Assembly: GCA_964571335.1 (NCBI GenBank)
Contig: CAZNAM010000001.1
Span: forward strand, 1 to 26,052
Direction of reading: 5' to 3'
DNA from: an uncultured Methanosarcinales archaeon
GTDB lineage: Archaea; Nanobdellota; Nanobdellia; Woesearchaeales; ARS49
DNA length: 26,052 bases
Below are positions 3,126 through 18,781 of this stretch, in pieces. The position numbers and the translations under genes are program-made. The notes beneath the pieces are model-generated. The model saw only the letters and a list, made by a program, of their open reading frames with translations. It did no database searches and had not been told where the DNA came from. Positions within the stretch are counted from its first letter, which is position 1. Every line of letters begins with the position of its first letter.

Positions 3126-3133
3126 TTTTATAA
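3126..3133 (+). promoter_or_regulatory. TATA box of rnj (leaderless transcript predicted)
   Basis: TTTTATAA preceded by an A-rich BRE-like run. Exactly 23 nt separate it from the ATG at 3157. Confidence 0.7.
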
Positions 3134-12369: not shown

Positions 12370-13743
12370 ATGATATCTCCAAGTATGCGTTTGAAATGGT
12401 ATAAACAAAAAGCTGTGCAAGAGCACATTGTTAAAAATTCTGAAAATAAAGAGATTGCTGTTAACTTTGGAGGTGTGGGTTTTGGTAAAAGACCTGATGT
12501 AATCAAACATCCTAAAGATGTTCTTGAGTTTGCCAAAAAAGGAGCTACTTCTTTTCATTGTTCTGAAGAAACTTGGGATAATCCTCTTAATATTCAAACA
12601 GGTATGAGAAAAAAAGAATTAGATGAATTAAGGATTGGTTGGGATTTGATTCTTGACTTAGATTGTCCTGCTCTTGAACTTTCTCAAATCACAGGCCATG
12701 TTTTAATGGATGCTATAAAATATTATGGCATCAATAATTTTTCTGTTAAGTTTTCTGGAAATCATGGTTTTCACATAGGCATTCCTTTTGAAACTTTTCC
12801 TAAAACCATTAAAAAAAATCCGACTAAAAATTTATTTCCAGATGGCCCTAGAAAAATTGCTTCTTTTTTAAGAGAAAGAACTAAGCAAATTCTTGGAGAT
12901 AAAATGCTTGAATTTTATTCTTTGTCAAAAATTGCAAAACTTTCTGGAAAAGATGTTTCAGAATTATCAGATAAAGGTATTTTTAATCCTTATAATGCTG
13001 TTGAAGTTGATACTGTTTTAATTTCTTCCAGACATTTGTTTCGTATGCCTTATTCTTTTAATGAAAAATCTGGTTTGGTTTCTATTCCTGTTCTTCCAAA
13101 AGAAGTACTGTATTTTAATAAAAAAAATGCTGAATTCAACAAAGTCAACTTAGATTTGAAATTTATGGATAGAAAAAAGGTTGTTAGTGGTGAAGCTAGA
13201 AAACTTTTCATCCAAGCTTTTGATTTTGAAGAGGAAAAAAAGCAGTTTATTGAGAAAAAAGAACTATCAAAAAAGATGTATGTTGTTAATGAGGAGTTTG
13301 AAAAAATTACTGATAAAATTCCTGAAGAATTATTTCCTCCTTGTATCAAAAAAGGTCTTAAAGGGCTTATTGACGGTAAAAAAAGATTTATGTTTATTTT
13401 GATTAATTTTCTTTCATCTGTTGGCTGGAATCTTGAAGAAATTAAAGATATTTTATCCAAATGGAACAAAAGAAATGAAGAGCCTTTGAGAGAAACACTC
13501 ATTCAAGGTCAATTAAAACATAAGTTAGGAATTGGAAAAGAAGCAGTTCTTCCTCCAAATTGTGATAATAAAGCTTATATGATTGATATGCAGGTTTGTG
13601 AACCCGATAATTTTTGTAAAAAAATCAAAAATCCTGTTAATTATTCTGTTTTTAAGTATAAAAATATTAAAGCTGAAGAAAAAAAGAAACCTAAATCCAA
13701 AAAAATAAAAGAAAAAACAGAAGAATTAGAAAAAAAAGATTAA
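12370..13743 (+). CDS. priS-priL: Fused DNA primase (PriS catalytic domain + PriL C-terminal Fe-S domain)
   Basis: WDLILDLDC (DxD), VKFSGNHGFHI and SSRHLFRMPYSFNEKSG (PriS), followed by FPPCI...PPNC...VC.PDNFC..IKNPVNY (four Cys, PriL-CTD). Confidence 0.93.
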   Translation: MISPSMRLKWYKQKAVQEHIVKNSENKEIAVNFGGVGFGKRPDVIKHPKDVLEFAKKGATSFHCSEETWDNPLNIQTGMRKKELDELRIGWDLILDLDCPALELSQITGHVLMDAIKYYGINNFSVKFSGNHGFHIGIPFETFPKTIKKNPTKNLFPDGPRKIASFLRERTKQILGDKMLEFYSLSKIAKLSGKDVSELSDKGIFNPYNAVEVDTVLISSRHLFRMPYSFNEKSGLVSIPVLPKEVLYFNKKNAEFNKVNLDLKFMDRKKVVSGEARKLFIQAFDFEEEKKQFIEKKELSKKMYVVNEEFEKITDKIPEELFPPCIKKGLKGLIDGKKRFMFILINFLSSVGWNLEEIKDILSKWNKRNEEPLRETLIQGQLKHKLGIGKEAVLPPNCDNKAYMIDMQVCEPDNFCKKIKNPVNYSVFKYKNIKAEEKKKPKSKKIKEKTEELEKKD

Positions 13744-13775: not shown

Positions 13776-13793
13776 AAACGTAATCTTTATAAA
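13776..13793 (+). promoter_or_regulatory. BRE + TATA box of the ribosomal protein superoperon
   Basis: AAAACGTAATC-TTTATAAA. The 23-nt spacing seen at other promoters here places the start at G13817. Confidence 0.75.
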
Positions 13794-13816: not shown

Positions 13817-13997
13817 GCTGACTAGCCTGGGAGCAAAAGCGGCTCAGTACAGTCTTGTCAAAAAAGAAATTGATGATTTTATCATCTACCCGTTTATAGG
13901 TAATTAATTTCATTTTTGACACACAAAAATTTCATAAATTAGAATAATGGAATTTTTGGTGTTTTAAGACTTCTTAGGCTTAAGTTTGTATGAAAAA
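13817..13997 (+). ncRNA. Highly structured ~180-nt 5' leader RNA of the rpl3-rpl4-rpl23 operon (candidate ribosomal leader or ncRNA)
   Basis: Nested helices read by eye: 13824-32/13972-80, 13851-56/13966-71, 13857-64/13913-20, 13866-71/13906-11, 13872-77/13881-86, 13887-90/13899-902 and 13921-35/13947-62. No ORF of note lies in the interval. Confidence 0.7.
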
Positions 13998-14972
13998 ATG
14001 CCAAAAAAACATCATCCAAGACGAGGTTCATTGGCTGTTAGACCTAGAAAAAGGGCCAATAGTCAAAATGTTAGAGTTAGAAATTGGCCTTCTGTTTCTG
14101 ATAATAAACTTCTTGCTTTTGCAGGTTATAAAGCGGGTATGACTCACATTCTTATGAAGGATACAAGAGCAGGCATTCCTGAAAAAAATGCAACACTGAG
14201 TATACCTGTTACAATTATTGAATGCCCTCCTCTAAAAGTTATTGGTCTAAGAGGATATAAAAAAGACGTTTATGGTCTTTGTTGCTCAACCCAAAAATTT
14301 GTTGATAATATAGCAAAAATCGATAAACATCTTTCAAAAACTCTTATTCTTCCCAAAAAAGAACCAAAAACAATTGAACTTAATGATCTTGATGAAATCA
14401 GAATATTGGTTTGTACTCAACCATCTAAAACAAATATTGGTAAGAAAAAACCTGAAGTGTTTGAAATTGCTTTAGGTGGTAAGCAAGAAGATCAATTAAA
14501 ACTTGCAGAATCTTTACTAGGTAAAGAGATCAAAGCAAGTGATGTCTTTAAAGAAGGTGAAGAGTTAGATACTTCTTCAGTTACAAAAGGCAAGGGTTTT
14601 CAAGGCCCTGTTAAAAGACATGGAGTTAAAATTAGATTTCATAAAAGTGAAAAAACTAAGAGAGGCCCTGGTAGTCTTGGTCCTTGGCATGGCCCTAGAA
14701 TGTGGAAAGTTCCTCATGCAGGACAAATGGGTTATCATCAAAGATCAGAATATAATAAACAAGTATTTTTGATTAGTGATAAAGCAAATTTGATTAATCC
14801 TAAAGGAGGATTTATCAATTATGGTATTGTTAAAAATGATTTTATTATGATTAAAGGGAGTATTGGCGGTCCTAAAAAAAGACTTATCAAATTACTTTAT
14901 CCAATTAGACCTAATAAAAAACCTTTCAAATTATCCAAAATTGAATTTATTAGCCAGGAGTCTCAACAATGA
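13998..14972 (+). CDS. rpl3: 50S ribosomal protein uL3
   Basis: HPRRGSL..RPRKRA, GYKAGMTH, PVTIIECPP, VTKGKGFQGPVKRHG and AGQMGYHQRSEYNK. The ATG at 13998 is preferred over the TTG at 13986. Confidence 0.98.
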   Translation: MPKKHHPRRGSLAVRPRKRANSQNVRVRNWPSVSDNKLLAFAGYKAGMTHILMKDTRAGIPEKNATLSIPVTIIECPPLKVIGLRGYKKDVYGLCCSTQKFVDNIAKIDKHLSKTLILPKKEPKTIELNDLDEIRILVCTQPSKTNIGKKKPEVFEIALGGKQEDQLKLAESLLGKEIKASDVFKEGEELDTSSVTKGKGFQGPVKRHGVKIRFHKSEKTKRGPGSLGPWHGPRMWKVPHAGQMGYHQRSEYNKQVFLISDKANLINPKGGFINYGIVKNDFIMIKGSIGGPKKRLIKLLYPIRPNKKPFKLSKIEFISQESQQ

Positions 14973-18276: not shown

Positions 18277-18476
18277 AAATTAAAGAATTACGTTCACTTA
18301 ATCTGGAAGATTTAAAGAATAAAAAAATAGAAATTAGAAAAGAGTTAATGAAAGAACTAGCTATGAGCTCCACTGGCACTATTCCCAAAAATCCAGGAAA
18401 GATTGGTGCTATGAAAAAAACAATTGCAAGAATCAATATGACTCTTGCTGAGAAGGAGGCAAAGACTAAAGCATGA
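18273..18476 (+). CDS. rpl29: 50S ribosomal protein uL29
   Basis: KIKELRSL...NPGKIGAMKKTIARINM, and its position in the operon. Confidence 0.95.
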   Translation: MKIKELRSLNLEDLKNKKIEIRKELMKELAMSSTGTIPKNPGKIGAMKKTIARINMTLAEKEAKTKA

Positions 18477-18781
18477 CTGAAATTTGCCCAACTTGTGGAC
18501 TTCCAAAGGACTTGTGTGTTTGTGAAAGTATTGCAAAAGAAACTGTAAAAATCACAATCAAAATTGAAAAAAGAAAATTTGGAAAACAATACACCATTGT
18601 TGAAGGTATTGATGGCAAAGAAATCAACTTGAATGATTTGGTTAAAACACTAAAAGCAAAGCTTGCTTGTGGTGGAACAGCTAAAAGCGGCAAAATCGAA
18701 CTTCAAGGAGATCACAAACAAAAAATCAAGTCTTTGTTAATTGAAGCTGGTTTTGCACCAGAAACAATCAACATTAAATAA
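18473..18781 (+). CDS. sui1: Translation initiation factor SUI1 (aIF1)
   Basis: CPTCGLPKDLCVCESIAKE, RKFGKQYTIVEG and LKAKLACGGT.K.G.IELQGDH. Confidence 0.97.
   Translation: MTEICPTCGLPKDLCVCESIAKETVKITIKIEKRKFGKQYTIVEGIDGKEINLNDLVKTLKAKLACGGTAKSGKIELQGDHKQKIKSLLIEAGFAPETINIK

Follow-up and report, generated by a model that had tools for sequence, protein, structure and literature searches.

The window, by which we mean the whole 26,052-nt stretch of DNA analysed here, contains a large ribosomal-protein operon headed by rpl3. The rpl3 gene starts with an ATG at position 13998, and its product, with the N-terminus MPKKHHPRRGSL, matches the Pfam family Ribosomal_L3 with an E value of 2.9e-73. 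The operon comprises at least 18 genes, overlapping or abutting over >12 kb, in the order uL3, uL4, uL23, uL2, uS19, uL22, uS3, aIF1/SUI1, uS17, uL14, uL24, eS4, uL5, uS14, uS8, uL6, eL32, eL19 and more. Because the genes downstream of it overlap or abut in this way, the leader of rpl3 heads the main ribosomal-protein super-operon. The aIF1/SUI1 gene (18473-18781, + strand) lies inside the operon between uS3 and uS17, and the 197 nt before it (from 18276), at the position expected for uL29, contain no ORF of at least 75 aa. Upstream of the rpl3 promoter are a Hef-like helicase/nuclease gene and an ORF for a 457-aa protein (12370-13743, + strand) with Pfam hits to the primase small subunit (residues 117-241) and large subunit (residues 292-420). 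These hits suggest that a PriS-PriL fusion primase is encoded immediately upstream of the promoter.

A sequence-only reading of this DNA had proposed that rpl3 is preceded by a TATA box and by an unusually long, base-paired leader. The box, a canonical one (TTTATAAA), is indeed present where it was placed, and the distance from its first nucleotide to the ATG is 212 nt in rpl3, compared to 28-31 nt in four other genes of the window (TATA start and ATG at 3127 and 3157, 7111 and 7139, 12340 and 12370 and, on the minus strand, 7058 and 7027). The shorter distance is the leaderless spacing. Between the predicted transcription start and the rpl3 ATG there is thus a leader of 181 nt (13817-13997), which is single-copy in its own 559-kb genome and whose sequence is present in DNA metagenomes from lake water only, with no RNA run listed. 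An out-of-frame AUG (AUGAAAAAAUG) is found 8 nt upstream of the rpl3 start (13990-13998). The A-rich start context of rpl3, which has no Shine-Dalgarno (SD) sequence, recurs in G001 and in the g10-type leaders. A second TATA-like box (GTTTATAGG, 13893-13900), which is not conserved, lies 105 nt upstream of the ATG within a lineage-specific insertion described below, and may be an internal promoter.

The leader folds markedly better than expected from its composition. RNAfold gave -47.0 kcal/mol for 13817-13997, while 200 dinucleotide-preserving shuffles gave -31.1 +/- 3.9 kcal/mol with one shuffle as good (z = -4.04). All of the helices that had been proposed were found in the sequence (Table 1; P1 to P4 are the helices of the RNA family described in the next section). 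The minimum free energy (MFE) structure includes the outer helix, the three-way domain and the 15-bp hairpin; the AGUCUU/AAGACU pairing is possible but lies outside this structure. The outer helix and P1 end 12 nt upstream of the start codon, which is an AUG without SD. Two alternatives are visible within this one sequence. The GACU of strand S pairs with AGUU at 13983-86 or, alternatively, with AGUC at 13851-54, and the local hairpin S1 competes with the outer helix, the two possible folds of this leader competing over one CUGGGA segment.

Table 1. Promoter, leader elements and first gene of the rpl3 operon in the window
Feature	Positions	Strand	Basis or remark
TATA box TTTATAAA of the rpl3 operon promoter	13786-13793	+	sequence, canonical
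Predicted transcription start, about G13817	13816-13818	+	TATA spacing only (~30 nt past TATA start)
Strand S CUGACU, P1 5' strand	13818-13823	+	fold; family P1 covariation
GACU/AGUU	13820-23 / 13983-86	+	sequence
Outer helix AGCCUGGGA/UCUUAGGCU	13824-32 / 13972-80	+	sequence
P2 5' strand AGCCU, near-invariant core	13824-13828	+	pairs AGGCU 13976-13980
Local hairpin S1 (CUGGGAGC..GCUCAG)	13827-13847	+	counterpart of the order-wide CUGAAAAG/CUUUUCAG
CAGUACA, most conserved single-stranded motif of the family	13845-13851	+	alignments
AGUCUU/AAGACU, P4-base helix	13851-56 / 13966-71	+	sequence; family P4
AT-rich lineage-specific insertion	13857-13965	+	three-way hairpin domain 13857-13920 and 15-bp hairpin 13921-13962
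GUCAAAAA/UUUUUGAC	13857-64 / 13913-20	+	sequence
15-bp hairpin	13921-35 / 13947-62	+	sequence
AAGACUUCUU: P4-base 3' strand, then conserved UUCU	13966-13975	+	sequence, family alignment
P2 3' strand AGGCU and P1 3' strand AGUU	13976-80, 13983-86	+	sequence, fold
rpl3 (uL3), first gene of the operon	13998-14972	+	Pfam

A covarying RNA family upstream of rpl3

Comparison with relatives showed that only the ends of the leader are conserved, namely CUGACUAGCCUG..CAGUACAGUC on the 5' side and ACUUCU-AGGCU on the 3' side. Two same-genus genomes, with leaders of ~95 and 105 nt, share just the promoter and the 5'-terminal ~45 nt, at identities of 80% and 77%. The central hairpins at 13857-13965 are absent from both of these genomes, indicating a lineage-specific insertion, and the nested fold of the whole 180 nt, as first envisaged, is not a conserved unit. 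The GC-rich loop at 13833-50, singled out as an unpaired recognition element, turned out to be the most conserved part of the leader. However, it is not unpaired, but forms an arm of a local hairpin CUG...CAG that is followed by the invariant CAGUAC.

For ~70 genomes of the family, we compared the regions 5' of rpl3. In nearly all of them, a TATA box is followed ~30 nt on by CUGAC-N-AGCCUGARAAG...CAGUACA-GUCRG...ACUUCU...CGCAAAAGGCU...GUYGG. The spacing is tight. Of 69 family leaders, 65 have a TATA-like box; counted from the start of this box to the CCUG of AGCCUG, the distance is 37-44 nt in 52 of the 65 and exactly 40 nt in 36 of the 69. The core of ~90 nt begins almost at the predicted 5' end of the transcript, a few nucleotides away at most, and is composed, in this order, of P1 (CUGAC/GUYGG), P2 (AGCC/GGCU), an A-rich internal loop of ~5x5 nt, P3 and an apical region. 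Order-wide, the internal loop has GARAA on its 5' side and NNNAAA on its 3' side, and in the family GARAA is opposite GCAAA. P3 has ~10 bp whose sequence varies by genus with complementarity kept, the pairs including GGAAUCCCAG/CUGGGAUUCC, GAAGCUUUUC/GAAAAGCUUC, GGAGUUUUUC/GAAAACUCC and GAUGCCUUG/CAAGGCAUC. The apical region consists of CAGUACA, the hairpin P4 and (A)CUUCU. The order-wide consensus can be written as AAGCC-UGAAAAG-N3-8-CUUUUCAGUACA-(P4)-GUUUCUA-(P3 3' strand)-AAUAAA-AGGC. Single-sequence MFE folds of many genera independently yield the same architecture. Some leaders carry additional elements. Those of genus g17 (L061, L063, L064, L066, L068-L070) have a TATA distance of 58-73 nt, with one more hairpin, rich in GC, placed between box and motif (GCGCGUUUACCGACGGUAGACGCG is an example), and most of them have no J3 loop and an extended P2 instead (GCCUGAA/UUCAGGC in L066). 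The leader L019 (genome G017) measures ~264 nt from the CCUG core to the ATG; in this interval, two additional structured insertions flank the downstream hairpin, one on each side.

Many relatives carry homologues upstream of rpl3, and these covary strongly. Covariance model R1, built from 15 sequences, was used to align 50 family leaders: 92.1% of the cells pair, compared to 77.0% in column shuffles, none of which (500 in all) came up to the observed figure, changes on both sides occur in 22 of 26 pairs, and double-change cells number 169 vs 45. When the partners were slid by 1-3 columns in this alignment, 30-49% of the cells were paired. A second model, R2, aligned 92 leaders of the family and the wider order (90 distinct sequences), with 89.0% of cells paired vs 66.9% in shuffles, 490 double-change cells vs 159, a covariation score of 0.558 vs 0.205 and at most 50% pairing in the slid controls; these figures, like those from R1, overstate independence and significance because the alignments are model-fitted and the sequences are related. 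The independent MFE folds and the diversity of P3 sequences agree with the covariation. Scores on the reverse strand are much weaker (20 vs 95 bits for L039), and this, together with the many G-U pairs, indicates an RNA on the rpl3 sense strand.

Within this family the copy in the window is divergent. It keeps the promoter, strand S, P2, the local hairpin, CAGUACA, the P4 base, UUCU (13971-74) and a short P1, and it is missing the distal P3 strand and the A-rich J3 loop of the consensus. With these two parts lost, UUCU abuts P2 and extends it to the outer helix of Table 1. In addition, 109 nt have been gained within P4. The copy scores just 11.4 bits with R2, filters off. The copy is degenerate, eroded in some parts and expanded in others, and comes from a fast-evolving genus with small genomes; it may have a different mode of action or be in decay. 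In the same-genus genome G002, P2 has been lost instead. All in all, we consider it very likely that these leaders form a conserved and structured cis-acting family, with a divergent member in the window.

Of 80 further rpl3 loci, >40 had an R2 match just 5' of rpl3, all of them labelled Woesearchaeota or Nanoarchaeota; the Methanobacteria, Undinarchaeales, Thermoprotei-type and nanohaloarchaeal loci among the 80 had none. At a whole-genome E value of 0.01 or less, 56 of 151 sampled genomes of the order were matched, each exactly once, and all 20 of the fetched matches lie directly before the uL3 N-terminus. The true prevalence is above 56/151, since at least three of five complete genomes of the order without an R2 match carry variants recognisable by eye. 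A class-wide sample gave matches only in this order, with none found in ~130 genomes of other orders. In L027, a second model match (2764-2830, 26 bits) has none of the conserved motifs and looks spurious. In the zone 26-36 nt upstream of the rpl3 start codon, a TATA-like box is found in 0 of 69 family leaders and in 3 of 57 others. The absence of such a box near the ATG and the strong, position-fixed TATA box before the element indicate that the element and rpl3 belong to one transcript. The element thus lies in the 5' UTR of a ribosomal-protein operon, on the sense strand, and would be co-transcribed with it from the predicted start.

The sequence-only reading recognised no named RNA family here, and our searches agree. 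With cmscan against Rfam 15, no match at gathering score was obtained for the window and 12 related loci. On the leader at E<=10 we found only chance-level matches, the best being mir-1252 with 19.6 bits against a threshold of 70, and the consensus-type member L027 had no Rfam 15 match, even at E<=10. Full-text literature searches found no ribosomal-protein leader from Woesearchaeota or DPANN archaea. We rate the motif as a previously undescribed structural family within a known kind, the ribosomal-protein leader, and infer its function. Several other identities were considered and rejected. ARAGORN finds no tRNA or split tRNA with an intron. A repeat or MITE does not fit, the stretch being single-copy in its genome and the motif occurring once per genome. 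SRP RNA and RNase P RNA were located elsewhere in the window's genome and in four relatives, and 5S rRNA was located elsewhere in the four relatives and not found in the incomplete G000; therefore the element is not a reduced or disguised universal RNA. A hammerhead (CUGACGAG) was rejected because many members have U in place of G8 (CUGACUAG), a GAAA/stem III arrangement is missing and Rfam gives no match. For a K-turn, the would-be G1b is an A in most of the order (GCCUGAAAAG), with AAAA-GGC on the opposite strand (alignments A5 and A6 were inspected), no register fits the covarying P3 pairs and the tandem G-A/A-G is not conserved. A sarcin-ricin or bulged-G module has its AGUA conserved, yet no opposed GAA in register.

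A competing local hairpin and the possible output

In most of the order, a hairpin CUGAAAAG/CUUUUCAG competes with the extended fold. It is bounded by the invariant CUG (of AGCCUG) and CAG (of CAGUAC), and pairs CUGARAAG, the loop strand and the end of P2, with CUUYUCAG, the top of the P3 5' strand. With the strand of the internal loop and part of P3 thus engaged, the hairpin excludes P3 and weakens P2. We scored it over positions 4-8 of 76 distinct segments with the register anchored on both invariant triplets. In register, 85.1% of the cells are paired vs 78.2 +/- 0.8 in shuffles, and there are 29 double-change cells vs 8.0 +/- 2.3, a number that 0 of 500 shuffles reach. Shifted registers gave 37-54% paired cells (65 distinct segments, positions 1-9). 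Examples of covarying hairpin pairs are GAGAA:UUCUC, GAAAA:UUUUC and GAU:AUC. Forcing the local hairpin costs 5-15 kcal/mol in stability relative to the extended fold (4.9 in the window), a deficit that is easier to reconcile with an intermediate formed during transcription than with a partner at equilibrium. In the family, the CUGAC of the 5' strand is complementary to the GUCRG after CAGUACA, fully in 31 of 55 cases, with 3 of 25 among the non-CUGAC variants. This pairing, which is suggestive only, would enclose the local hairpin in a domain at the 5' end. The competing, covarying hairpin suggests a two-state switch with the extended stem, which we hold to be about as likely as not.

Oligo-U is a termination signal in archaea. 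A run of at least five U (U5-8) directly follows the P2 3' strand in 23 of 50 leaders from other families of the order and in 2 of 41 from the family of the window. The extended stem and U run, opposed by an earlier-forming hairpin, have the form of an attenuator. Leaders of the U5-8 type include L114, L121, L163, L164, L168, L170 and L176, often with an A run 5' of AGCC. In the window there is no terminator-like site and no U run of at least five after the P2 3' strand. The absence of the U run from the window and from most of its family means that one output mechanism does not fit all members, and the expression platform may differ between lineages. We also computed the accessibility of the start region with either fold enforced. 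The trend is weak, with a mean difference of 0.05, the extended form being more open in 56 of 106 leaders and the local form in 19 of 106. Many members have no SD sequence, the 16S rRNA 3' end being ...CACCUCCU. In view of the weak accessibility trend and the many SD-less members, we rejected UUCU as an anti-Shine-Dalgarno sequence, and likewise a pairing of the distal P3 strand with the start region.

Ligand and alternative explanations

Mimicry of rRNA by the leader, raised as a possibility, was not detected. Three look-alikes, which are no more than leads, were found for 23S H94/H95 (GUCUGAGGGGAAGGAAGCUCUAGUAC ... CGAAAAGAGAYGUC), for the 23S domain I junction with 'GAGUAC' (UCCUGAGUAC, then a hairpin) and for 16S h12 (GCCCUGAGAAGGA). 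However, local alignment to the organism's own 23S rRNA gave scores no better than those of shuffled queries, and R2, run with filters off on four rRNA operon loci, found nothing, the best match (E 0.16) lying outside the 23S rRNA. That match (L078, 4756-4844, + strand, 13.6 bits) starts with AAGCCUGAGCAAAG, lies ~340 nt downstream of the 23S rRNA of G011 and is probably due to chance. The 23S match in L081 (G061) spans 3316 nt, compared to ~2915 nt in three relatives, suggesting an insertion or intron. In L189, from the complete genome G040, the uL3 match contains one in-frame TGA.

We hold a ribosomal protein, with moderate confidence, to be the ligand of the leader. uL4 is one first guess by analogy, since the E. 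coli S10 leader and a leader candidate of Archaeoglobi are both assigned to L4 (PMC7247131). uL3 is the other, since it is encoded by the first gene and its globular domain organises domain VI of the 23S rRNA (PMC9935924).

We favour, with moderate confidence, a composite explanation: a leader of the uL3 super-operon, belonging to a Woesearchaeales-wide family, would toggle between two folds and serve ribosomal-protein feedback. The two states would be the local hairpin, which forms early, and the extended stem, which is more stable. An operon-encoded ribosomal protein, uL4 or uL3 as a first guess, would bind one of the two forms when in excess over rRNA, and the protein-bound form would lower the expression of the operon. 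In many lineages this might occur by premature termination at the U5-8 run directly after the extended stem. In the window, the outer helix might instead be kept closed, ending as it does 12 nt before the SD-less AUG. A bolder version, in which an order-wide DPANN switch uses the local hairpin to anti-terminate against the U5-8-ended stem and is tipped by uL4/uL3 over a >18-gene super-operon, is unlikely. If true, it would be the first ribosomal-protein-mediated transcription attenuation in archaea and an independently arisen analogue of the E. coli L4/S10 attenuator.

Other explanations can be given for the same observations. The element could be an independent small non-coding RNA gene of ~90-100 nt ending at the U run, with rpl3 served by read-through or by a second promoter. 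Its place at the predicted 5' end of the transcript, behind a strong TATA box, would fit such a gene, as would the closing helix directly followed by at least five U in 23 of 50 leaders outside the family. However, a second promoter is hard to place when 123 of 126 leaders have no promoter-like box at leaderless distance from rpl3, and the U run that should end the gene is absent from the window and nearly all of its family (present in 2 of 41). The element is also single-copy in the matched genomes, with the sampled matches immediately 5' of rpl3 on the same strand, and the SRP RNA, RNase P RNA and 5S rRNA found elsewhere argue against a universal RNA in disguise. A separate gene is thus highly improbable. 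Much the same must be said of a generic 5'-terminal hairpin that stabilises the mRNA against 5'-3' exonucleases, or serves its processing, without any feedback, the hairpins of the window being neutral AT-rich insertions that fold by chance. The structure does start no more than a few nucleotides from the predicted 5' end, the central 109 nt of the window are not conserved and AT-rich sequence easily forms long A-U helices. On the other hand, a stabiliser needs the stem alone, whereas here the loop and junction sequences are conserved over >100 genera while the stems vary, and a second, competing fold is maintained as well. We give this explanation very little weight.

The two mutually exclusive and covarying folds, the highly conserved unpaired GARAA, CAGUACA, UUCU and AAAAGG and the terminator-like U run of many members are also what a riboswitch-like sensor would present. 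Such a sensor would couple ribosome synthesis to physiology through a ligand other than a ribosomal protein (a metabolite, an ion, an alarmone, a tRNA or another trans-acting protein), and it would also fit with rRNA mimicry having been detected neither by local alignment to the 23S rRNA nor by R2 on the rRNA operon loci. However, the conserved loops are A-rich and simple with no obvious pocket, and the gene context is one of ribosomal proteins only, with no hint of a metabolite. We know of no riboswitch on an archaeal ribosomal-protein operon. The prior for ribosomal-protein autoregulation at this place is much higher, given the E. coli S10 leader and the Archaeoglobi L4 leader (PMC7247131), and we regard a sensor as improbable.

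Significance and relation to known leaders

To our knowledge, very few archaeal ribosomal-protein leaders have been described, and none in DPANN archaea. The motif found here is an alignable RNA family of ~100 distinct sequences with strong covariation and two competing folds, and it heads the largest ribosomal-protein operon. It bears on how ribosomal proteins and rRNA are balanced in DPANN archaea, which have reduced genomes and mostly leaderless mRNAs. In metagenome bins of Woesearchaeota it can also serve to annotate where the rpl3 operon starts, and it is a candidate for an Rfam entry.

The leader of the E. coli S10 operon mediates transcription attenuation and translational repression by uL4. 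Its operon likewise carries uL3, uL4, uL23, uL2, uS19, uL22 and uS3, it has a hairpin followed by a U run, as do many members from Woesearchaeales, and its regulator is encoded downstream, as in the model proposed here. It differs in being bacterial, in having S10 as the first gene and in depending on NusA for termination, and there is no similarity in sequence or structure. The K-turn in the 5' UTR of L7Ae is of the same functional kind, a cis RNA bound by the product of its own mRNA. Ribosomal-protein leaders are an established kind, of which few archaeal ones are known (PMC7247131). The Methanococcus L1 mRNA site and the S15-Halobacteria/Methanomicrobia and eL15-Euryarchaeota leaders (PMC7247131) also belong to this kind, as cis RNAs bound by their own product. 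The archaeal leaders just named mimic identifiable rRNA sites, namely a three-way junction, a bulged-G module or a K-turn, whereas no rRNA mimicry was detected here. The closest archaeal counterpart is the L4-Archaeoglobi leader candidate, which is in Rfam (PMC7247131; Eckert & Weinberg 2020). Like the present motif, it is archaeal, lies upstream of rplC(uL3)-rplD(uL4)-rplW-rplB and has been proposed to be an autoregulatory ribosomal-protein leader (PMC7247131). Unlike the present motif, it is confined to Archaeoglobi and was rated borderline by its authors (PMC7247131). Neither the leader in the window nor the consensus-type member has a cmscan match to it, even at E<=10, and the motif described here is, as far as detected, found only in Woesearchaeales, where it shows much stronger covariation and an alternative fold.
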